Made by a program: the position numbers and the translations under genes. This document shows positions 6,601 to 43,022 of a DNA stretch of 64,000 bases, piece after piece. Location: NCBI GenBank assembly GCA_047975765.1, contig JBKEEF010000012.1, forward strand, positions 84,824-148,823, written 5' to 3'. Under the pieces are notes generated by a model, which did not search any database, had not been told where the DNA came from, and was given only the letters and a program-made list of their open reading frames with translations. This stretch comes from Alphaproteobacteria bacterium (GTDB taxonomy: Bacteria; Pseudomonadota; Alphaproteobacteria; RF32; CAG-239). The first letter of the stretch is position 1; the number at the start of each line of letters is the position of its first letter.

Positions 6601-7129
6601 CAACTGAAGATGAAGGAAAAATGTCAAGAATATCTCCACGAACAGCATATTCGCCTCGTTCCATGACTTGTTCAACACGAACATAGCCATTGATTGCAGC
6701 ATAATGAAGAAAATTATTGAAATTGAGCTTTCCTCCAATTTTAACTTCTTGGATGGAATTGATAAAAATTTTCTTCGGTGGCAGTTTTTGCAAAACCGCA
6801 GAAACCGTTGTCACTATAATTCTAGGCTTTTTGGGTGTTGAATTAACAGCCAGTTCCGAAAGAGTCTCAATTCTCTGCCCCATAATATCCGCGTTCGGAG
6901 AAACTCGATCATAAGGCACTGTGTCCCAAGCTGGAAAAGGGAGAACTGTTACATCAGGATTGATATATTGTAGCAAATCAACCGTTTTATTCATTCGAAA
7001 ACCATCGCTAACAATATAAAGAAAATCTTTATCCGATTTTTTATATAATTCGGAAAGTAAAATAGCATCATAACCGTCGACTACTGAAGAAACAACCAAT
7101 CCTTTGATTTTATTTATATCGTTTAACAT
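3671..7129 (-). CDS. mfd: transcription-repair coupling factor Mfd
   Basis: 1152 aa. Superfamily-2 helicase motifs (GDVGFGKTEVA, DEEQHFGV), RecG-like wedge and TRG motif. Length matches Mfd. Confidence 0.95.
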   Translation of the reverse strand: MLNDINKIKGLVVSSVVDGYDAILLSELYKKSDKDFLYIVSDGFRMNKTVDLLQYINPDVTVLPFPAWDTVPYDRVSPNADIMGQRIETLSELAVNSTPKKPRIIVTTVSAVLQKLPPKKIFINSIQEVKIGGKLNFNNFLHYAAINGYVRVEQVMERGEYAVRGDILDIFPSSSVEPIRIDIFDDEVEKIRTFDPISQRTTGNLERYEFQVMGEVVLDENTIKTFRSKYRETFGLNSNKDEIYEAISSGQKYMGIENWLPLFYEDALPTFFDYLPWAEVIIGNEVGSAIKSKEESIIDYFQARLEGVQVKDNQVDTYRPIKPELFYLSEKEFKEIAQKKGAVTFTNMNVSSSEPSTMQGVLPGRDFSNAKAQSIAQVYIDLNHYLSENGKFKRIICCQTEGSREKLFSLMSENGIDDLTFAETWAEAMQKASKKIVLIVLSVPTGFRGEGFVIISEEEILGKRQQTKRKKASSKDFIADVSALAVGELVVHIEHGVGRFLGLENVVAGGAPHDCVKIEYAGNAKLFVPVENIDVISRYGLDNENVQLDTLGGSAWQAKKAKVKNKIRDIAEKLIKIAAERTLRKGEAFLPRDGLYQEFCSGFPYQETDDQLNAINDVLSDLGSGTPMDRLICGDVGFGKTEVAMRAAFAVASNGAQVAIIAPTTLLVRQHYYNFKKRMEGFPIKVKMLSRLVTPKETKEVKQGLAEGSIEIVIGTHALLAQDMKFCNLGLLIIDEEQHFGVAHKEKLKAFKSDVHVMTMTATPIPRTLQLSLTGVKQLSVIATPPVDRLAARSFVMPFDTVMVKEAIYREKHRNGQTFFVCPRVSDIFYVEKILKELVPDIRIAVAHGQMPVKNLEDVMNDFADGKFDLLLSTTIIESGIDMPTVNTMIIYRADMFGLAQLYQLKGRVGRSKVRGYCYFTVSQRKKINPIAERRLNILKALDNLGAGFSLASHDMDIRGSGNILGEEQSGHIKEVGIALYHHMLEEEIARIKAGAYGKEEEVAEWIPQINIGIPIMIPETYVQDLGVRLGLYKRIGDLKTKAEILDMKEELVDRFGKLPEEVENLLTTVEIKQLCKMANIEKIDAGAKGALVMFRNNVFAQPEKLIDFISKQFGIVKVRSDQKLFIEKNLESYKIRVETIKNYIAKLVDLL

Positions 7130-7135
7130 CTGATC

Positions 7136-7858
7136 CTAATCTTTTTCTAAAACTTGAATAACTTCATCTTGTGCTTTTTCTTTTTGAACAACATCTATCA
7201 ACATAATTTCATCTTTGTTTTGAAACTTGCAAAAAGCTGAGGCTCTTTGTTCTTTTTCAAAGACACTGCAAACTCTATCTTCTTTTTGATATTTTACTGT
7301 TTCAACAAAATTCTGTTTTTGATAAAAAGACTGAACAGTCTTTAGATTTATTCTCTTTACAAAAGCCTTATCAACATAAATTTTTCTCACAAGAATTGTC
7401 TTTTCTCTTCCTTGTTGCAATTTGATTTGTGAATATTGTTTTAAGAGTTTATCTCTGAGGCAATCTTGATTTTCCTCACCCTGTTCACATTCTCTTGAAA
7501 TCCAAGGCCTAAAACCACCTTCAACCAAACCGTATTGTGCCAATGCCAAGATAAAATCTTCATAGACAATTGTTTTTAACTGTCCTTTTTCTAAAACAAA
7601 CGCATACTTGAGTGTATTTCCACTTTCATCAGGAACAATATATTTCAAAACCTCAGTTTGACCTTCTTTTATCTCTTCTGAAGGTTTTCCAAAGGTTTCA
7701 ATTATTGCCTGTTTATTATAGTAGTTTGGTGGCAAGAAATTTATATTTTCTTCAAAATATTGAACAACATCTTGTTTCTTTTCAAGAGTCACATATTCAG
7801 GTGCTGACACGCAGCCCAAAAGACCAAATAAAAATATAAACAGCCCTAGTTTTTTCAT
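7136..7858 (-). CDS. hypothetical lipoprotein
   Basis: Start moved to the internal ATG at 7858 (MKKLGLFIFLFGLLGC lipobox). The ORF-track start at 7900 adds 14 residues ahead of the signal peptide. Confidence 0.55.
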   Translation of the reverse strand: MKKLGLFIFLFGLLGCVSAPEYVTLEKKQDVVQYFEENINFLPPNYYNKQAIIETFGKPSEEIKEGQTEVLKYIVPDESGNTLKYAFVLEKGQLKTIVYEDFILALAQYGLVEGGFRPWISRECEQGEENQDCLRDKLLKQYSQIKLQQGREKTILVRKIYVDKAFVKRINLKTVQSFYQKQNFVETVKYQKEDRVCSVFEKEQRASAFCKFQNKDEIMLIDVVQKEKAQDEVIQVLEKD

Positions 7859-7948
7859 CTCAACTTCCGCATAAAACATTAGTTTATTTACTTTGGGCAC
7901 ATCATATAGTATAAAAATGATAGGAGCAATAATTTTGATGAATAAAAA

Positions 7949-10030
7949 ATGAGACCAAGCCTTTTATTTCCCCTTTTTTCTTCAATCACCAACCTAGGAG
8001 GCATTGGTGAAAAAAACGCTAAGCTTGTTGAAAAAATGGCTGGAGGAAAAATTGTCGATTTACTTTGGCACTTGCCTTATAACATCATTGATCGTACTTA
8101 TTCCCCTGCACTTATTTATGCAGAAAGCGGAAAATTGATTACTGTCAAAGTCAAAATTTTAGAACATATTGAACCAAAAAGTAAAAAACAACCTTACAAG
8201 GTGATTGCAACGGACGGTACTGCAGAGATTGAACTTATTTTTTTCAAAGTATATGCACAAACTATTGCAAAGAATCTCCCTCTCTATGGTGAGAGAATTA
8301 TCTCAGGAAAAATTGAAAAGTATAATAATTCAATCCAGATGACCCACCCTGATTATATTGTTCCTGTTTCTCAAGAAAATCTTGTCTTAGGCTTTGAGCC
8401 TGTCTATTCCTTGACAGCTGGAATTTCCAATAAGTTTGCCAATAAAATTTGTAATGAAGCAATTAGCAGATGTCCAAAGATGCCTGAATGGGTGGAAGAA
8501 CATCATCAAAAAGCAATGAACTTTCCAAGCTTCAATCAAGCTTTATTAGAAGCACATAATCCAACCTCTTTAGCGGAAACAGAACCAACTAGTCTCTCAC
8601 ACCAACGCTTGGCTTATGATGAACTTTTGGCAAATCAACTCGCTCTAGCTATCGTGCGTCAACGTGTCAAAAAACAACTGGGTAACAAGCTTCAAGGCAA
8701 TGGTTTACTGCGAAAAAAGATATTAGATTTTCTCCCTTTCAAACTAACATCTTCTCAAGAAAAAGTTTTAAGAGAAATCTATGGAGATATGGCTGGAGAA
8801 TATAGAATGCACCGCCTCTTACAAGGAGATGTGGGTAGTGGAAAAACGATTGTGGCTTTTATGGCAATGCTCAATGCAGTTGAATGTGGGAAGCAAGCAA
8901 CAATTATGGCACCAACAGAAATTCTGGCAAAACAGCATTTAGAAACCTTAAAACCCCTCTGCGATGAAATTGGCATCAGAGTGGAACTGCTAACAGGAAG
9001 AGTTAAGGGTAAGGCTCGAAAAATGATTTTGGAAGACCTAGCCGAAGGAAAAATCGATATACTTGTTGGAACACACGCTCTTTTTGTTGAAGATGTTACT
9101 TTTGAATCTTTGAGCTTTGTTGTAATAGATGAGCAACATCGTTTTGGGGTTCATCAAAGATTAGGTTTGTCCAGTAAAGGAGATAAAACAGACATTTTAG
9201 TCATGACAGCAACTCCTATCCCAAGAACATTGGTTTTAACAGCTTATGGTGATATGGAATATTCTAAAATCGACCAATCTCCAGAAGGCAGAAAACCGAC
9301 AGAAACAAGGGTGATGCCTATCACGAAAGCAGACGAAATTATCTTTGCGCTTCAAAAACAAATCAAAGAAGGTAGAAGGGCTTACTGGGTTTGCCCTCTC
9401 GTGGAAGAAAGTGAAAAAGTTGACCTTGCTGCGGCAATTGGACGTTTTGAAATTTTGCAAAAATTCTTTGGCAAAGAGGTTGGACTTGTTCATGGTCGGA
9501 TGAAAGAAAAAGAAAAAGATGACGTTATGGAAAAATTTAAAAAGGGCGAAATAAAAGTCCTTGTTGCCACAACTGTTATTGAAGTTGGTGTCAATGTTCC
9601 TGAAGCAACCATTATGATTATTGAGCATGCTGAACGCTTTGGTCTAGCACAACTGCATCAACTCAGAGGAAGAGTTAAACGTGGCTATGAAGCCTCAAAC
9701 TGCATTCTGCTTTATGCTTATCCTCTTTCTGAAACTTCTAAGTCTCGACTTAATATTATGAGAGAAACGGAAGATGGATTTCTCATTGCAGAAGAAGATT
9801 TGAAACTTAGAGGTGGAGGAGAAATTCTTGGCACAAAGCAATCTGGTTTTTCAGAATTTAGAATTGCGGATATGAATGTTCATCAAAATTTGCTTTTGAC
9901 AGCGAATAAAGATGCAAAGATGATTTTGGAACTTGACCCTAATCTAAAAACGCCAAGAGGAGAGGCTTTAAGAACCTTGCTCTATCTTTTTGAAAAAGAT
10001 GATTCCGTTCGAACCTATCTTGCTGGATAG
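7949..10030 (+). CDS. recG: ATP-dependent DNA helicase RecG
   Basis: 693 aa. The N-terminal wedge region aligns with E. coli RecG. Helicase motifs GDVGSGKT, DEQHRFGV, TATPIPRT. Length is identical to E. coli RecG. Confidence 0.95.
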   Translation: MRPSLLFPLFSSITNLGGIGEKNAKLVEKMAGGKIVDLLWHLPYNIIDRTYSPALIYAESGKLITVKVKILEHIEPKSKKQPYKVIATDGTAEIELIFFKVYAQTIAKNLPLYGERIISGKIEKYNNSIQMTHPDYIVPVSQENLVLGFEPVYSLTAGISNKFANKICNEAISRCPKMPEWVEEHHQKAMNFPSFNQALLEAHNPTSLAETEPTSLSHQRLAYDELLANQLALAIVRQRVKKQLGNKLQGNGLLRKKILDFLPFKLTSSQEKVLREIYGDMAGEYRMHRLLQGDVGSGKTIVAFMAMLNAVECGKQATIMAPTEILAKQHLETLKPLCDEIGIRVELLTGRVKGKARKMILEDLAEGKIDILVGTHALFVEDVTFESLSFVVIDEQHRFGVHQRLGLSSKGDKTDILVMTATPIPRTLVLTAYGDMEYSKIDQSPEGRKPTETRVMPITKADEIIFALQKQIKEGRRAYWVCPLVEESEKVDLAAAIGRFEILQKFFGKEVGLVHGRMKEKEKDDVMEKFKKGEIKVLVATTVIEVGVNVPEATIMIIEHAERFGLAQLHQLRGRVKRGYEASNCILLYAYPLSETSKSRLNIMRETEDGFLIAEEDLKLRGGGEILGTKQSGFSEFRIADMNVHQNLLLTANKDAKMILELDPNLKTPRGEALRTLLYLFEKDDSVRTYLAG

Positions 10031-35412: not shown

Positions 35413-35988
35413 TTATATTCCGAAGTTCAACTGAACAACCTGAGTTACAATTCTGTCAAACACTCGTTTGTGCATATCTCTAACATTATCATAAGTGAAA
35501 GGCATTCCCAAAGCTAAGAGTAATTCTTTGACTTCCACAGATGTTTCATAATATTGATGGCTATATGTTCTCTTTGTTCTTAAATCAGTAATTCTGACAT
35601 CATATTGATATCGGTCATTCGTCCAAGAAGGAACGATGAACAACGTTCCGTAAGTTGCATAATTACACCATTTACATTCAGTATAAGTTCCTCTAACAAC
35701 GACATCTACTTTATATTTTGGTGCATAGACATTGTGAGAAACTTCTCCGAAAGTTCCTGCATCATAAAAACTTCCTGTAATTTCTCTTTCAAAGGCTCTT
35801 TTAAGCTCTGCATTTTTTTGCATATCAGCAACGCCTTCATAAGTTGTGAAGACTTGAACTGTCAACAACACATCTGGTCTGTTTGTACCAACAATTTCAT
35901 TTTTTGGCGTATTACCAACATTATTACTCGTGAAGCTCACGCATCCACTTAAAAAAACAGTTAAAACTAGGGCAAGTGCTTTTTTCAT
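35413..35988 (-). CDS. hypothetical lipoprotein
   Basis: 191 aa. MKKALALVLTVFLSGC lipobox. Confidence 0.55.
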   Translation of the reverse strand: MKKALALVLTVFLSGCVSFTSNNVGNTPKNEIVGTNRPDVLLTVQVFTTYEGVADMQKNAELKRAFEREITGSFYDAGTFGEVSHNVYAPKYKVDVVVRGTYTECKWCNYATYGTLFIVPSWTNDRYQYDVRITDLRTKRTYSHQYYETSVEVKELLLALGMPFTYDNVRDMHKRVFDRIVTQVVQLNFGI

Positions 35989-36078
35989 TTCAAAATCCTA
36001 TATAGTTCAATTAGAATGATTCATTATTATGCTTATTTATTTTAAGTCAACTATTTATCTACAAAATCCCCCAATTGA

Positions 36079-36396
36079 TTAGGAAATTTTTAGGCAAACA
36101 ATTCCTCCAACGATTAAAACAATTCCAAACCAACTCAAAAGTGTAGCTGTGTCATTAAAATAATATATTCCAAGAAGAAATGTTCCCACAGCTCCAACTC
36201 CTGCCCAAGCAGCATAAGCTGCTCCAATTGGAATTGTTCTTTGCGCCAAATATAATAAGAAACCACTAATTGTCATCCCAACTGCAGAGAAAACAACCCA
36301 TGCCACATTATGTTCAGGATTAACCTGTGCCATCTTAAATCCTGTTGGCCAAGAAACTTCGAAAAGTCCTGCTAAAATTAAATATACCCAAGCCAT
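36079..36396 (-). CDS. SMR-family small multidrug/quaternary ammonium efflux protein (SugE/EmrE-like)
   Basis: 105 aa. Four TMs. MAWVYLILAGLFEVSW with the conserved membrane Glu. Confidence 0.8.
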   Translation of the reverse strand: MAWVYLILAGLFEVSWPTGFKMAQVNPEHNVAWVVFSAVGMTISGFLLYLAQRTIPIGAAYAAWAGVGAVGTFLLGIYYFNDTATLLSWFGIVLIVGGIVCLKIS

Positions 36397-36534
36397 TCAT
36401 TTTCCTTTCTTTATTAAATTCACTTAAAAATAAAAGGAAAACGAAAAAAATTCAAGAATTTTCCAATATTTTAATGAATTTATAAAATACAAACACTATA
36501 TTCGAGGTAAGATAAATTAACTCGGAGAATAAAA

Positions 36535-37698
36535 ATGAAAGAATTTGTTTTTCATAACCCAACCAAAATTATTTTTGGAAATGATTCAACTGCCAAATTT
36601 GGCGAACATGCCAAAGACTTAGGAAAAAAGGCACTTTTTGTGTATGGGCAAAATAGCATCAAGAAATCTGGGCTATATGATGAAATTGTTCGCCAACTTA
36701 ATGAGCATAATATTTCATTCATTGAACATGAAGGTGTTAAATCCAATCCAACTTTGGAACATACGAGAGATGGTGTAAAGAAAGTTTTAGAAAACGGAAT
36801 TGATTTCATTGTTGCGATTGGTGGTGGAAGTGTTCTAGATGAAGCTAAAGCCATCGCAGCTTCTTCAGCCTCCAAAGTTGATGCTTGGGATATTTTTACG
36901 CAAAAAGAAAAAATCACCAAAGCGCTTCCACTCATCACCGTTTTAACTTTACCTGCAACGGGAAGTGAGATGAATGGAAATATGGTCATCACCAATACTG
37001 AAACGAAGGAAAAATTTGGACTTGGGAACCCTCTCCTTTATCCTAGAGTTTCCATTCTTAACCCTGTTTTGACCAATACAATTCCTTTGAAAAATACAGC
37101 ATATTCTGTTGTTGATATTGTTTCCCATCTCACCGAAAGCTATTTCAACAATGAAGGTGGAGATACATCTCTTCAGGAAAGATATGTCCAAGGTTTGAGC
37201 AAAACCATCATAGAAGCTTCTTATAAAGTGATGAAAAACCCTGAAGATAATGAAGGTAGAGCAACGATCATGTGGGGAGCAACACTTGGTTGGAACGGAC
37301 TAAATACTGCGGGTATTGGACATTTCTCCATGCCTTGCCACATGTTAGAACATCCTTTGAGTGCAATTTATGATATTGCTCATGGTGCTGGACTTTCTAT
37401 TGTTACCCCTGCTTGGCTTTCAAACCATGTTGAAACAAAGACAAAAAAAATCGCTCAGTTTGGTCGAGAAGTTTTTGGTGTTGAAGAAAAAGATGACAAG
37501 AAAGCGGCAATTAGTGGAATTGAAAAACTTAAAGCTTGGTACAAAGATATTGGGGCACCAACATCTTTCAATGAAGCTGGAATTTCAAACCCTGATGTTG
37601 ATTTCATTGTTAAACTTGTGATGGAATCTGTCCGCTTGCGTGGGACAAAAGGTTTAGATGAACCATTAATCCGAAAAATCTATCAAGATTGCCTCTAG
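36535..37698 (+). CDS. iron-containing alcohol dehydrogenase (YqhD/BdhA-like)
   Basis: 387 aa. GGGSVLD NAD(P)-binding motif. Metal-binding His cluster (HFSMPCHMLEHPLSAIYDIAHGAG). Confidence 0.85.
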   Translation: MKEFVFHNPTKIIFGNDSTAKFGEHAKDLGKKALFVYGQNSIKKSGLYDEIVRQLNEHNISFIEHEGVKSNPTLEHTRDGVKKVLENGIDFIVAIGGGSVLDEAKAIAASSASKVDAWDIFTQKEKITKALPLITVLTLPATGSEMNGNMVITNTETKEKFGLGNPLLYPRVSILNPVLTNTIPLKNTAYSVVDIVSHLTESYFNNEGGDTSLQERYVQGLSKTIIEASYKVMKNPEDNEGRATIMWGATLGWNGLNTAGIGHFSMPCHMLEHPLSAIYDIAHGAGLSIVTPAWLSNHVETKTKKIAQFGREVFGVEEKDDKKAAISGIEKLKAWYKDIGAPTSFNEAGISNPDVDFIVKLVMESVRLRGTKGLDEPLIRKIYQDCL

Positions 37699-37705
37699 AA
37701 AAATG

Positions 37706-37737
37706 AAGAGCCCCAATTTTTAGAAATTGGGGCTCTT
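37706..37737. terminator. bidirectional terminator hairpin
   Basis: AAGAGCCCCAATTTttagAAATTGGGGCTCTT. Confidence 0.55.
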
Positions 37738-37893
37738 ACTTAAAGATATGTTTCACGTTGCTTGTTGATAATTTGGTACATTTCTTCTTGAACTTTGACC
37801 TTATCAATGACTTTCTTGATAATTTCTTCGGCTTGAGAAAAAAGTGAATAATCTGCAGGAGCAATAAAACCCACTCTTTTATCTTTAAAAAGT

Positions 37894-38598
37894 TCAACAG
37901 CCATTTTTTTTTGAAGAAGGTTTTCTTTCTTCAAAAACAGCTAGTGCATGTCCGCCTTGTTGTCTCACAATTTTCATACATGGAACATCTGTTTCACCAT
38001 CACCAATATAAATCATCTGCGAAAAATGAATATATTTCTCTTCATGAGGAACATATTGGTTTACTCTGGTGTTCTCATAATAATTAAAAATACCTTTGTT
38101 AATTCTGAACAAATGTTGTGTTTTGTTTGTGTAGTTCACAGCAGTTGCTGTCCCAATAGCTTTTCCTTCATCATCATACAAGAAACTACTTGCAAAAATA
38201 TGTTTGAAGTTTTCAGCAATTTCTGTTCCCCGAATCATCTCTTCAAGCCCGGAGGAAATGATATAATGTTCGACTTCTACACCAACTTCTTCACCATATT
38301 GATTGATTCTATCGAACCAAGTATCAAGTCCGTTAAAGAGTGGAATTTCTCGTCCAAAATCAATCATATCCTCTTGGGTCAATGAAAGTCCTCTTTGTTT
38401 TACCTCTTCAAGCATAAGATACATATAGGAAATGATACTGTCCATATTATGTTTCTTTGCAAAATCATTGTTCTCTTTCCAAAATTCTTGAGGATTAATC
38501 CCAAATTTGGGAAAGAAAGAGAACTCCTGCATATAGCCTGAAGATAAAGTTCCGTCAAAATCATAGCAAATTGCTATTTTGGTATTCATTTTTTTCAT
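37894..38598 (-). CDS. HAD-superfamily phosphatase-like hydrolase, probably frameshifted at an A9 run (full length would extend to about 37740)
   Basis: Motif I DFDGTL. Motif IV IYIGDGETD. The ORF stops just after an A9 homopolymer (plus-strand T9 at 37904-37912). The alternate frame continues 54 codons with only a TTG start. Confidence 0.65.
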   Translation of the reverse strand: MKKMNTKIAICYDFDGTLSSGYMQEFSFFPKFGINPQEFWKENNDFAKKHNMDSIISYMYLMLEEVKQRGLSLTQEDMIDFGREIPLFNGLDTWFDRINQYGEEVGVEVEHYIISSGLEEMIRGTEIAENFKHIFASSFLYDDEGKAIGTATAVNYTNKTQHLFRINKGIFNYYENTRVNQYVPHEEKYIHFSQMIYIGDGETDVPCMKIVRQQGGHALAVFEERKPSSKKNGC

Positions 38599-38634
38599 AT
38601 CAAAATAATTTAAATTAATAATTTTCTAAAATTT

Positions 38635-39714
38635 TCAACGTCCGCCGTTTCTGCCTTTTCCAAATTTTATAAAGCTTGGCTGAACATATTTTTGCGCAGG
38701 TTCGTGAGCCTTTGTCTTTTTAAAGATTGCCATATCTTCTTTCATTTCTTCTCTATGGCTAACATAAATTTCGCTCACATCAACAACACCTAGTCTTGGA
38801 TGCACCATAAACAATGTTTGGCTTGGATATTCAGCTTCCAATTTCAAGTCTCTGGCATACTGATTATAACCAGGCATATTCGAATTGACAATAGTATGTT
38901 CTAGTTTCAAATGTCTATGGAAATGCCCCATCAAAACCCAATCAATATATTTACCTTCCTGTGCATATTTCTGACGTGTTTTATATTGCCCTTTTGCAAT
39001 TGTTGCACTTACACCAATGAAACCTGTTCCGCCTTTTGCTCCTATTCTGTCACCATGAATTGCTAAGAAATTTGTTCCATAAACTGGGAAGAAAGCTTCC
39101 CCTGATTTTGGAGTTAGAAAACTGACATTCTTTGCTTTTTCAAAATGTTTTTCAATGAACATTGTTGAAATTGAATCATAACTTGTTTCAACAAAATTTT
39201 TAGATTCCGGTTTTTTGGTTGTTCTTCCATGATTTCCAGGAACAGAGACTATCCAAACATTTTTGAACTCTTTGCGAAAAGTTTCAATCATTCTGCATTC
39301 CTGCTTAGCACATTCAACGGCTGCTGCAATTGGACCCAGAGCATTTGTCTTATCTAGCTCATTATGAATGTCTCCTGAAACAGTATCTCCCAGACGGCAG
39401 ATGACAATTCCAGGTGCTTTTTTGCCTCCCTTACCACGAAGTTTGAGAATTGTATTATTCGTTAAACGCTCAATTCTCTTATTCGCAACTTCAACATTGC
39501 AATTGACACCATCTATTTCAACAGGGTCCACAACTTCGCCATAGTGAATATCACTTGTGAGCAAGACAGGAATATTTGGCAACCCAGTCACAAGAGCTTC
39601 ATCTTGTCCAACTTCTGACCATTCTGGAAGGTTGAACGGCTCCTCGCTCAAATGAAAGATTTCTTCTCTCAAGTTTTGTGCATGGTATAGTTCATCGTGA
39701 ACATCCTGCAACAT
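38635..39714 (-). CDS. calcineurin-like metallophosphoesterase. True start probably the ATG at 39868, lost by a 1-nt frameshift in an A8 run
   Basis: Motifs SDIHYGE (DxH), GDTVSGD (GDxxD), GNHG, HGD, GHFHRH (GHxH). The in-frame ATG at 39714 has no SD. An ATG at 39868 has an AAGAGGA SD but is +1 out of frame across the A8 run at 39854-39861. Confidence 0.7.
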   Translation of the reverse strand: MLQDVHDELYHAQNLREEIFHLSEEPFNLPEWSEVGQDEALVTGLPNIPVLLTSDIHYGEVVDPVEIDGVNCNVEVANKRIERLTNNTILKLRGKGGKKAPGIVICRLGDTVSGDIHNELDKTNALGPIAAAVECAKQECRMIETFRKEFKNVWIVSVPGNHGRTTKKPESKNFVETSYDSISTMFIEKHFEKAKNVSFLTPKSGEAFFPVYGTNFLAIHGDRIGAKGGTGFIGVSATIAKGQYKTRQKYAQEGKYIDWVLMGHFHRHLKLEHTIVNSNMPGYNQYARDLKLEAEYPSQTLFMVHPRLGVVDVSEIYVSHREEMKEDMAIFKKTKAHEPAQKYVQPSFIKFGKGRNGGR

Positions 39715-39991
39715 TTGTGCATAGTGTTTGATTTTGTTTTCATATACTTTTTTTTCGCTAGCTCCTAGTCCTATTTTTCCATCATATTTTGCTAGCTCAT
39801 CTTTTAATTTTTCTCTTAGTTTATCCTCTTTTGCTTCGACATCGCTAACTTTCTTTTTTTTCGCTCATTTTTATTTTCCTCTTGATACAAATTCAAATTA
39901 AAAAAAATCGCGAATAATATTTCATCAATAGTATATCAAGTGGCAAATCCGGATTGTCACTTCAAGGTTATAAAAATTTTCAAAATAATCA

Positions 39992-40030
39992 TGAAAAAAG
40001 GCTACTGAATTTTCAGTAGCCTTAAAAAAC
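39992..40030 (-). terminator. terminator-like hairpin with T-run on the minus strand
   Basis: Minus strand: AGGCTACTGAAaatTCAGTAGCCttttttt. Confidence 0.45.
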
Positions 40031-40294
40031 TTAAAAAAGTTCCTTATCTAATCTCTTACCGTCTTGTATGATACATAATTTTTTCATTATATGTTCCCTA
40101 ACAGTTACAACTAAATCTATATCAATTTTTATATAGTTTAAATATTTTATTTATTTTTTTACACAGGCAAAAAAGATGCCCCGATACATGAAAAAATCGG
40201 GACATCCATTTAAGGAACTATAATAATTTTGGCAGTTTTACTAAAAATGCACATGACAACATTTTTAAAAAACTCTCGAACATCCAAATTTTTT

Positions 40295-40520
40295 ATTCAA
40301 AAAAAACCCACCAATATCAAGAGGCGGGCGGATGTTCGAAAACCGTATAAAGCTGGACGGCTCGGCTTATTTGGCAAAGCCTTATTCACCGACATCCGCC
40401 CATAAAGACAGAAATCGGCAACTTTTTTTAGGTCGCATGCACAACGACCAGCCTTATTTTAAGGGTTTTCGAAGCCCTGAGCAGAAAAACACTCTGCCTA
40501 GCTGGAAGCATATTTGAATT
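40295..40520 (-). ncRNA. candidate structured small RNA or GC-rich palindromic repeat cluster ending in a rho-independent terminator (identity unknown)
   Basis: Local GC well above the surrounding non-coding DNA. Several stems (GGGCGGAUGU/ACAUCCGCCC, GGUCG/CGACC, CCAGC/GCUGG). Minus-strand terminator CCCGCC-loop-GGUGGG followed by U8 at about 40295-40325. Confidence 0.3.
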
Positions 40521-40676
40521 TCACCTATTTTACAAGCACTTATTTATATATTTCATTTCTTGTGTGCTTTCTTAAAAAGTTGCGATAATTCATCATAACC
40601 CAAAGCTATCCTTCTATGGTATCTAGCAAAGAGAGTTAGTTATTTTGAATATACTACCTAAAAGAATATATACCTA

Positions 40677-43022
40677 TTAGTCTATAAGTTTGATCTTTAT
40701 AATAGATTTTGCACTACGCCCAAGATTGTCGGTCGCTATAATTTCAATTTCACCAACTTCTGTTTTCATTTCTAATGTTTCTTCTGCTTTGCTACTTCCA
40801 ATAAGCTTTCCATTAGCATACCAAAAAAGCGTGGTCGCATCTGAATCCATACTTCCTTTAAGAATAATTTTTTCGTCAGCCAATTGATGAGAACGGACAA
40901 TATAGGTGCTTTCATTGGTTGGATATTGAATGATAGGAGGCTTTCCCTGATTGAAGATACCAATTTCATCACAGTCTTCAAGAAAATCTGGCGGTCCTTT
41001 TTTGCTAATACCTGCCTGTTCATAAATTTTCAAAACATTTGAAGGCCAGAAATTATAAGTTTCCATTCTAGTCGTTGGTGGAGTGTGTTTACACGCTCTT
41101 TTGCCTGTGGCAATATCCACAGGAATTTGCCTTGTGATATTTGAGAGCTTTATACTTGTGACACCAGAAATGAAATATGACTTTTTAGTGTTTTTGCAAT
41201 TTCCATTATCTATATCTCCCGTTTCTGTACAAACATCAACTTTAGAGAGCTTTAAACCATAAGGCTTAATATCTTCTAGTTTTTGAGTTTTTCCAAGCAT
41301 TCTAACAATTCTAAAGAACAATGGAGCAGCAGCTGTTCTGCCCACAAAATGATTATTCGAAGTGCTGTCAAAATTTCCAACCCAAACCACAATCACATAA
41401 TCTCCAGCAATACCTGCTGTCCAAGCATCTTTATAACCATAAGAAGTTCCAGTTTTCCAATAAACTAAATATTCTTTGGCTCTTGCCTTAGCAAACTGCA
41501 CTTTAACTCTGTCTGGTTCAGGTGCTTTTGAAAGCATATCTAGCGTCATAAAAGAAGCCTCAGAAGAAAGAAGTTGTTGTGGTTCGCAGGTCGGACTACC
41601 TTTCACAAAATTCAAATCACAACTTTTTCCCAAATTTGCTAAAGTAGAAAAGGTTTTAGCAATATCTAATGGGGAAAGCTCAAAAGCACCAAGTGCCAAT
41701 CCAAGCCCATAATAATCAGGACTTTTCATATTTTGAACACCACTTTTTTGCAAAAACTTATAAAATGAATCTTTTTCAATTTGACTCATCAAATCAATAA
41801 CTGGTAAATTTCGACTCAAATTGAGTGCTGATGTTGCATTAACCAGACCAAGATATCCTCTATCGAAGTTTTCTGGCGTGTAAAAGCTATAGTTTTTAGG
41901 CACATCTTTGAGCATTGACATTGGATGAATGATACCTTGTTGCAAAGCCAGTGCGTAGATAAAAGGTTTCAATGTTGAACCTGGCGAACGATAAGCTCTA
42001 AGACCATCCACCTGCCCTTGTATTTGAGCATTCCAAAAATCCTTAGATCCAACATAAGCCAAAATTTCATTCGTTTTATGATTCATAATGACTGCTGCAG
42101 CATTATAAACTCCTTTGGTTTCGTTTTGTTCAACATATTTCACCAAAATTTCTTCAAGAGAATTTTGCAAACCTAAATCCAAAGTTGAAAAAATTTCTCC
42201 ATAATATTGATTTTGTAAATTTCTAACAAAATGAGGCGCAAAGCTTGGAATTTTCTTTTGGGCAAATAAAGGTAAATTGAGATTATTTTTCTCCTTGTCA
42301 CCAAACTTCAAAAACCATATTTCTTTCAACCTTGAAACAGCTTTCACAACTTCTTCAACGCCTTTTTTTCTACCTAAATTTCTTTTGCTAGGATTTTGTG
42401 GAATAACAGCTAATGACATTGATTGTTGCAAATTGAGGTTCTGAGCTCTTGTATCAAAATAGATAATGCTTGCGGCTCCAATTCCTTCAATATTTCCGCC
42501 ATAAGGAGCTAAATTAAAATAAGCTTCAAGAATATCTTTTTTAGAATAGAACATTTCAATTTGAACCGCTCTCAAAATTTGTTCAATTTTTCCAAAAATG
42601 GTGGTGCTATCAATATGATAAACAATTCTTGCAAGTTGCATAGTAATTGTTGAAGCCCCTTGAACACGGCTTCCTTTCGCCATATCAAAAACAGCTCTGA
42701 AAATACTTAAAGGATTAAATCCTGCATGAGCATAAAACCAATTATCCTCATAAAGAATCAATGCGTTCTGTAAATCTGCGGGGATTTCTTCGATTGGAAC
42801 AAAGAGACGATATTTATCGTCTAGACTTAAGCCAATTTTTAAAAGCTTATTATTTCGATCATAAACAGCAGAAGAATAGCTATATTTTTCAAGAAGTCGA
42901 GGCTTAGGAAGAACAATGTATAGCAATGCAAAACCCATTGCTATACATAGAACTATCCTAAAAAACTTATTCTTGAACAGTGAAAGTGCTTGCTTTCGTA
43001 TTCGCTCTAACATCTGTGTCAT
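40677..43022 (-). CDS. pbpC: penicillin-binding protein 1C (transglycosylase plus transpeptidase, PbpC)
   Basis: 781 aa. GT51 motifs EDNWFYAHAGFNP and GASTITMQLAR. Transpeptidase SxxK (SPGSTLKP), KTG (WKTGTSYG). C-terminal PbpC-specific domain. Overlaps the A2M gene by 56 nt. Confidence 0.9.
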   Translation of the reverse strand: MTQMLERIRKQALSLFKNKFFRIVLCIAMGFALLYIVLPKPRLLEKYSYSSAVYDRNNKLLKIGLSLDDKYRLFVPIEEIPADLQNALILYEDNWFYAHAGFNPLSIFRAVFDMAKGSRVQGASTITMQLARIVYHIDSTTIFGKIEQILRAVQIEMFYSKKDILEAYFNLAPYGGNIEGIGAASIIYFDTRAQNLNLQQSMSLAVIPQNPSKRNLGRKKGVEEVVKAVSRLKEIWFLKFGDKEKNNLNLPLFAQKKIPSFAPHFVRNLQNQYYGEIFSTLDLGLQNSLEEILVKYVEQNETKGVYNAAAVIMNHKTNEILAYVGSKDFWNAQIQGQVDGLRAYRSPGSTLKPFIYALALQQGIIHPMSMLKDVPKNYSFYTPENFDRGYLGLVNATSALNLSRNLPVIDLMSQIEKDSFYKFLQKSGVQNMKSPDYYGLGLALGAFELSPLDIAKTFSTLANLGKSCDLNFVKGSPTCEPQQLLSSEASFMTLDMLSKAPEPDRVKVQFAKARAKEYLVYWKTGTSYGYKDAWTAGIAGDYVIVVWVGNFDSTSNNHFVGRTAAAPLFFRIVRMLGKTQKLEDIKPYGLKLSKVDVCTETGDIDNGNCKNTKKSYFISGVTSIKLSNITRQIPVDIATGKRACKHTPPTTRMETYNFWPSNVLKIYEQAGISKKGPPDFLEDCDEIGIFNQGKPPIIQYPTNESTYIVRSHQLADEKIILKGSMDSDATTLFWYANGKLIGSSKAEETLEMKTEVGEIEIIATDNLGRSAKSIIKIKLID

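Follow-up and report, generated by a model that had tools for sequence, protein, structure and literature searches.

Metallophosphoesterase (MPE) domains, such as those of Clostridium thermocellum Pnkp (CthPnkp) and lambda phosphatase, and HAD domains, such as that of T4 Pnkp, both heal RNA ends. The PDC systems catalogued in PADLOC are candidates for defence that were nominated through guilt-by-embedding. One HAD family is listed there as the single-gene defence candidate PDC-S34 because some of its members are embedded in type I restriction-modification (R-M) operons; experimental validation exists for certain other PDC candidates. The locus considered here lies in a stretch of 64,000 nucleotides, termed the window, from the low-GC metagenome-assembled genome of an Alphaproteobacteria bacterium (assembly GCA_047975765.1, contig JBKEEF010000012.1, positions 84,824 to 148,823). 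It comprises two adjacent genes, both on the minus strand, that encode an MPE (38635..39868) and a HAD hydrolase (37740..38598). The comparisons described below indicate that these probably are two unrelated accessory genes that were acquired independently and now are neighbors in a small variable interval that separates pbpC from a Fe-ADH gene, without forming a conserved module. The first gene would be a phage-derived di-metal phosphoesterase of family phrog_284, and the second a member of a very large, conserved bacterial HAD-IB family without a solved or characterised member. Their shared orientation and probable co-transcription would be a mere outcome of how the genes inserted, and each would have been disrupted when a poly-A run slipped by +1, leaving it recently inactivated or slippage-silenced.

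The association between the two families was assessed in two samples of homologous loci. The MPE sample had 116 loci (1.37 Mb) and drew on phage contigs, species-representative genomes and IMG/VR; the HAD sample had 89 loci (0.93 Mb) and drew on metagenomes and look-ups. By tblastn (E <= 1), all 116 MPE loci were devoid of HAD homologues and all 89 HAD loci of MPE homologues. A search of the open reading frames (ORFs) in both sets with profile hidden Markov models (HMMs; E <= 0.01) also revealed no partner gene in any locus, and as a control the profiles found their own genes in 109 MPE loci and 80 HAD loci. When neighboring ORFs were clustered, no family occurred in more than ~15% of loci for either gene, and neither of the homologue hit lists contained an MPE-HAD domain fusion. 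PADLOC and Pfam scans of 111 HAD neighbors and 131 MPE neighbors identified mostly housekeeping or prophage genes. A conserved two-gene operon or functional pair was rejected, as the same adjacency recurs in no sampled locus by tblastn or profile HMM. The initial annotation had proposed that the two enzymes act together in nucleotide or cyclic-nucleotide turnover or in RNA-end healing, and had named conservation of the gene neighborhood as a check; the lack of linkage across all 205 loci, whether by BLAST or by ORF profile HMM, speaks against that proposal.

The position of the genes was compared with that of three loci that contain pbpC orthologues, namely L209 (GCA_028706255.1; 73% identity), L210 (66%) and L211 (66%). 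In the window the genes are flanked by pbpC and A2M on one side and by Fe-ADH on the other, in agreement with the initial annotation. The order in L210 and L211 is RNase G-YacG-A2M-pbpC-Fe-ADH-lipoprotein-lysozyme-MscS, and L209 displays the same order minus its missing genes, with neither Fe-ADH nor the SMR gene. The distance from pbpC to Fe-ADH is 95 bp in L210 and 398 bp in L211, the latter including an 85-amino-acid ORF, and MPE and HAD both are absent from all three loci. As these three relatives maintain the surrounding order without either gene, the MPE-HAD pair constitutes an insertion in a variable spot. The wider interval between pbpC and a gene for a 191-residue lipoprotein (window 35413-40677) differs in all four genomes. 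It contains a structured RNA, MPE, HAD, Fe-ADH and SMR in the window, and in the other three either the RNA only, or Fe-ADH and SMR, or the 85-residue ORF and Fe-ADH, in which case the lipoprotein gene is followed by a NUDIX gene. The interval is a small hotspot at which genes have been gained and lost. The island in the window consists of MPE, HAD, an 18-amino-acid ORF and non-coding sequence. No meaningful direct or inverted repeats were evident at the borders of the pair, and no tRNA gene was found near it.

Both genes are broken by a single lesion in a run of adenines. An A8 run in MPE (39854..39861, minus strand; T8 on the plus strand) has one A extra, so that the start codon (ATG 39868), with the good ribosome-binding site AAGAGGA before it, is out of frame with the rest of MPE. 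The gene is thereby divided into an ORF of 359 amino acids (38635..39714) and a 5′ part in another frame (39715..39868). Removal of one A yields a 410-amino-acid MPE that starts at ATG 39868 behind the AAGAGGA ribosome-binding site, and the 51 residues that are regained align with the N-termini of homologues. The frameshift in HAD maps to an A9 run (37904..37912, minus strand; T9 on the plus strand) that splits the gene into segments of 234 amino acids (37894..38598) and 64 amino acids (37740..37934), the latter in another frame. Subtraction of one A rejoins the 64-residue fragment to produce a 285-amino-acid HAD. The fragment corresponds to the C-terminal part that is conserved in the family, and aligns with the PADLOC profile at positions 225-280. 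The homopolymer-associated frame problems recorded in the initial annotation thus resolve into one extra A in each gene. Both runs are included in an independent second assembly (L208; Logan, SRR30067233) that is 100% identical over 17,164 bases. The frameshifts are real features of the assembled sequence that are reproduced in this second assembly.

Elsewhere in the window, ~57 A/T runs of >=7 bases are situated in open frames by our own count and none coincides with a frame break, whereas the frame is broken at two of the four A/T runs in the pair. A hand calculation of our own places the chance that two random errors both would fall in the pair at ~0.003. Each gene bears one lesion only and the catalytic residues all are intact. 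Because a +1 poly-A slip is present in each gene whose catalytic residues otherwise are preserved, the genes are suggested to be recently inactivated or slippage-silenced and not to work as a pair. The lesions are compatible with genes that were inactivated recently, with slippage-prone tracts that are in an off-state, or with frames that slippage restores. Among the alternatives to independent acquisition and silencing, the least unlikely is that errors of sequencing or assembly created the frame problems in two genes that are intact and ordinary. Homopolymers are classic sites of consensus error, and the complete catalytic motifs with a single lesion per gene are compatible with this explanation, but it is improbable in view of the identity of two assemblies over 17 kb and of the ~57 unbroken runs.

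The HAD protein possesses the motifs YDFDGTL, SSG, NYTNKTQ and GDGETD, which are invariant in 36 aligned sequences. Motifs I-IV and a Rossmannoid fold, the hallmarks of the HAD superfamily, both are present. The protein scores 38.5 bits with PF12710 (cut-off 27 bits), 32.7 bits with the HAD-IB profile TIGR01488, which is under the cut-off of 45, and only 11.6 bits with the SerB equivalog TIGR00338 (cut-off 144). The PADLOC profile PDLC05002 (PDC-S34) matches the main ORF with an E value of 1.6e-103 and the C-terminal fragment with 1.4e-08. The structural model has a pLDDT of 93.7, and its best Foldseek matches were SerB-type phosphatases and cytosolic 5′-nucleotidase III (E 7e-9 to 1e-7, TM ~0.55-0.6). 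The modelled fold is of the capped, SerB-like type despite the sub-cut-off scores with TIGR01488 and the SerB profile. The family includes more than 7,900 homologue clusters with a mean column identity of ~51% in a 36-sequence sample. Its profile retrieved no PDB sequence at E <= 0.01, and only one record in the phage collection had a match. Overall, the protein is predicted to be a capped HAD-IB phosphomonoesterase with the aspartate of DxDGT as nucleophile that would dephosphorylate a small phosphorylated metabolite or a nucleotide; in mechanistic terms, the safest description is a phosphatase of small molecules or nucleotides. The initial annotation considered that neither protein carried a nameable family signature, which does not hold: the MPE is a DP1-like member of phrog_284, and the HAD protein belongs to PDC-S34 within HAD-IB. 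The same annotation had set against a coupled pair the prospect that each protein would prove to be an unlinked member of a housekeeping family such as SerB or Icc/CpdA. Linkage indeed is lacking, whereas the proteins match neither of the named families and the genes are accessory.

The PDC-S34 assignment raises the question of a role in defence. Homologues of HAD with 44-46% identity are located between hsdS and hsdR on two alphaproteobacterial plasmids, Methylocystis rosea pGW6_2 (L219, 1848-11061) and Rhodobacter xanthinilyticus pEJ01 (L220, 2254-10061). The R-M operons there are ordered hsdM-rhuM-hsdS-(Shedu nuclease)-HAD-hsdR-sprT, with three embedded genes whose stop and start codons overlap, and seem to exemplify the embedding from which the PDC-S34 label derives. 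Housekeeping genes (AMP-binding, nitroreductase, Ham1, Mur ligases and NUDIX) account for most immediate neighbors of the 80 metagenomic homologues, and the scans of 111 neighbors revealed only a few R-M genes. A search of a literature library returned no mention of PDC-S34 and no experimental validation. Automatic assignments of PDC-S34 to defence are weakened because the family is very large, highly conserved and mostly found in housekeeping contexts. A defence role for HAD is no more than possible.

A more extensive proposal is that the locus is a mini anti-phage islet in which HAD and the solitary MPE each provide single-gene defence or superinfection exclusion, with the poly-A tracts as phase-variation switches that now are off. 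The strong PDC-S34 match, the homologues embedded with RhuM and Shedu in type I R-M operons, and the experimental record of other PDC candidates are in keeping with this proposal. So too are the patchy, lone occurrence of MPE at variable positions in phages and bacteria, often on the opposite strand to its neighbors, and the confinement of the window's frame breaks to exactly two slippage-prone runs, A8 and A9. However, the proposal is unlikely. The MPE has no PADLOC match at E <= 1, and the 131 neighbors of bacterial MPE homologues gave just nine PADLOC family matches with one member each. The surroundings of HAD homologues, the lack of any mention of PDC-S34 in the library searched and the absence of a further defence gene near the pair in the window also disfavor it, and classical phase variation normally involves tracts longer than A8 or A9.

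The motifs SDIHYGE, GDTVSGDIH, PGNHGR, HGD and GHFH are present in the 359-amino-acid MPE ORF, and the 34 homologues compared all retain SDIHYGE, GDTVSGDIH, GNHGR, HGD and GHFH unchanged. The motifs listed in the initial annotation therefore are correct except that the one written GDxxD actually is GDxxxGD. Pfam PF00149 (Metallophos) scores 18.3 bits, which is under its cut-off of 21.5, and the five metal-binding motifs together with fold matches to MPE enzymes place the protein in the calcineurin-like superfamily that this profile represents. The profile of phrog_284 ('exonuclease') matches with an E value of 5.6e-40 and 138.5 bits over positions 132-396 of 398. There was no match with NCBIfam profiles or, at E <= 1, with PADLOC profiles, and no PDB chain matched the family at the sequence level. 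In a structural model built on the 359-residue window ORF, the catalytic domain is closest to DP1 of archaeal PolD, followed by other polymerase B-subunits and SbcD/Mre11. The N-terminal region is a coiled coil, and other family members bear a helix-turn-helix.

Two more specific identities were considered and rejected for the MPE. An Mre11/SbcD nuclease was discounted, as the island has no SbcC-like gene and the SbcD and Mre11 structural matches rank below DP1; an SbcC-like family occurs at one of the 131 neighbors of bacterial MPE homologues. An Icc/CpdA cyclic-nucleotide phosphodiesterase would be characterized by a class III signature and by top similarity to Rv0805/CpdA, which the MPE does not display. 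From its membership in phrog_284 and the contexts of its homologues, the MPE is instead inferred to be a Mn2+/Mg2+-dependent nuclease acting on DNA ends that phages use in replication or recombination.

These contexts are diverse. The tblastn search returned 109 phage records with a match, and the nearest relatives of the window MPE share 45-54% identity with it. Some of these relatives are lone genes, antisense to their neighbors, on phage contigs of 227-279 kb. Homologues with 49-54% identity lie inside the tRNA arrays of the jumbo-phage contigs L003 (6000-17400), L128, L129, L130 and L131, which include 11-24 tRNA genes, with the MPE homologue always on the opposite strand. Association with tRNA genes was rejected as a rule for the family, being confined to one jumbo-phage clade and five of 109 loci. 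In contigs L001 and L002, the MPE homologue is antisense within a baseplate/sheath module and close to a NUMOD3 gene. A replication module at phage locus L216 has the homologue (7001-8167) flanked by DnaB and NrdD. The same locus encodes, at 1-1002 and 6 kb upstream of the MPE homologue, a CthPnkp-like kinase-Metallophos-RNA ligase fusion (AAA_33, PF00149 and RNA_lig_T4_1). As this fusion is a separate gene, the MPE family is distinct from the healing phosphoesterase of Pnkp type. Other homologues lie on bacterial chromosomes as solitary, intact genes between core genes and are not accompanied by HAD.

More distant members of the MPE family reside in a DUF2800-DUF2815-MPE-PolA-helicase module of temperate Bacteroides phages, and others, with an N-terminal helix-turn-helix, in the early regions of alphaproteobacterial prophages. 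In Staphylococcus phage 6ec (L047, 3863-7106), a distant homologue with 25% identity has terminase genes alongside and is flanked by a vWA-domain gene annotated as encoding an RNA-binding protein and by a tRNA-Pro gene, in contrast to the replication-module context. The antisense and tRNA-array placement resembles, by analogy, that of free-standing mobile nuclease genes. It is conceivable, but quite doubtful, that the DP1-like MPE is itself a free-standing self-mobile nuclease gene, homing-endonuclease-like on an MPE fold, that hops among bacterial chromosomes and phage genomes, landing in the latter within tRNA arrays and structural and replication modules. Its landing beside a PDC-S34 HAD would then mark an insertion hotspot or a nascent defence or end-processing unit with poly-A on/off switches.

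The initial annotation correctly described two minus-strand genes of the MPE and HAD superfamilies 36 bp apart. The gap from the MPE stop to the HAD start is exactly 36 bp, and a terminator-like site was sought in it without success. As the gap is this short and has no such site, co-transcription is plausible; the two genes probably are co-transcribed, and the operon that the initial annotation considered likely stands to that extent. A perfect 14-bp hairpin followed by a T-run (37706..37737, minus strand; inverted repeat I6) is located 3′ of HAD, which is tail-to-tail with Fe-ADH, and likely is the terminator of the MPE-HAD transcript. A terminator-like hairpin upstream of the MPE start (39998..40023, minus strand) separates the pair from the RNA region and the 18-residue ORF. 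The NCBI entries identical to the two proteins are "hypothetical protein ACK5N8_04885" for MPE and "HAD family hydrolase" for HAD, on a 362-kb contig.

Very little probability attaches to a lineage-specific two-enzyme operon for end healing or nucleotide/cyclic-nucleotide turnover, in which the HAD protein would take off the phosphomonoester left once the MPE has opened or removed a phosphodiester or cyclic phosphate: the co-oriented genes 36 bp apart with terminators at both outer sides and none between, the known RNA-end healing enzymes of both superfamilies, the kinase-MPE-ligase fusion encoded 6 kb from an MPE homologue in one phage, and the likeness of the HAD fold to cytosolic 5′-nucleotidase III are outweighed by 205 loci in which neither BLAST nor a profile-HMM search of the ORFs placed the two families together, by an island without a kinase or ligase gene, by an MPE fold nearest to DNA exonucleases with neither CthPnkp nor lambda phosphatase among the top matches listed, by a HAD family that is nearly absent from phages as opposed to a mainly phage-borne MPE family, and by the broken frames of both genes. 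An end-healing module of Pnkp type in particular was rejected, as a P-loop 5′-kinase, a ligase and Hen1 are absent from the island.

Several observations weigh against the view that two unrelated genes came together by independent insertion and were silenced. The operon-like 36-bp spacing, the shared orientation and the lack of a terminator make a lineage-specific functional coupling possible. Identity between the window genes and the loci in the samples reaches ~57% at most, and a closer relative that bears the pair may exist outside them. Single lesions and a full set of catalytic residues mean that the genes may be expressed by transcriptional or translational slippage on the A8 and A9 runs or be subject to phase variation. 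If L208 shares the reads of the metagenome-assembled genome, a systematic read error stays possible despite the agreement between assemblies. The TM-scores of the two proteins against solved structures also are modest, at 0.47 and 0.6.

The sequence between pbpC and MPE includes a structured RNA (window 40295-40525, minus strand) of ~190 nucleotides plus a terminator, with a fold z of -4.9. A match to sRNA-Xcc1 was sub-threshold (39 bits compared to a gathering score of 53). A counterpart with 79% identity over 320 nucleotides is located downstream of pbpC in L209 (11461-11770), in which the core is far better conserved and two compensatory pair changes are evident; the RNA is absent from L210 and L211. 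The RNA in L209 stands without MPE, HAD, Fe-ADH or SMR, and it therefore belongs to the lineage and not to the pair. The RNA island resembles none of the MPE loci in sequence and was rejected as part of an MPE-HAD unit, being kept in L209 without either gene. Between the RNA and the MPE start is an 18-codon ORF, MKKLCIIQDGKRLDKELF (window 40031-40087, minus strand), which is followed directly by the strong terminator hairpin at 39998-40023. A weak csRNA-like Rfam match (31 bits) on the opposite strand at this hairpin probably reflects just the hairpin.

The MPE and HAD proteins thus are further members of known, uncharacterised families and, as a pair, are of little import and form no candidate system. 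An operon is suggested by adjacency and co-orientation alone, and the comparative data do not back it. The sole mildly unusual side observation is the scattered, often antisense placement of DP1-like MPE genes in jumbo phages. Family phrog_284, with its DP1-like fold and its scattered, often solitary and antisense members, is of interest for phage replication accessories or mobile nuclease genes.

In comparison with described systems, the window pair draws on the same two superfamilies as the Pnkp enzymes, with the HAD phosphatase domain of T4 Pnkp and the MPE domain of C. thermocellum Pnkp, but the island has no P-loop kinase, ligase or Hen1 and the two genes are unlinked in the sampled loci. 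The MPE shares only ~17% identity with DP1, the 3′-5′ proofreading exonuclease of archaeal PolD, and with eukaryotic polymerase B-subunits. Members of the DP1/B-subunit family have an OB fold before the MPE domain and bind a catalytic polymerase subunit. The window protein, a possible member, has a coiled-coil N-terminus and no polymerase gene alongside. Identity with the named members of phrog_284, Bacteroides phage BU2-1 gp26 and Staphylococcus phage 6ec gp18, is just 24-33%, and the 'exonuclease' label of the family is an annotation only. Unlike these phage members, the window MPE is solitary, chromosomal, outside any prophage and frame-broken. The HAD protein has a Rossmann-like core and motifs I-IV in common with SerB-type phosphatases and cytosolic 5′-nucleotidase III, but is 12-18% identical to them, and its family adds a conserved C-terminal segment of ~60 residues. 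In contrast to the embedded members of PDC-S34, the window HAD gene is neither inside nor beside any defence system, yet its product, with the frameshift bridged, matches PDLC05002 over the full length of the profile.

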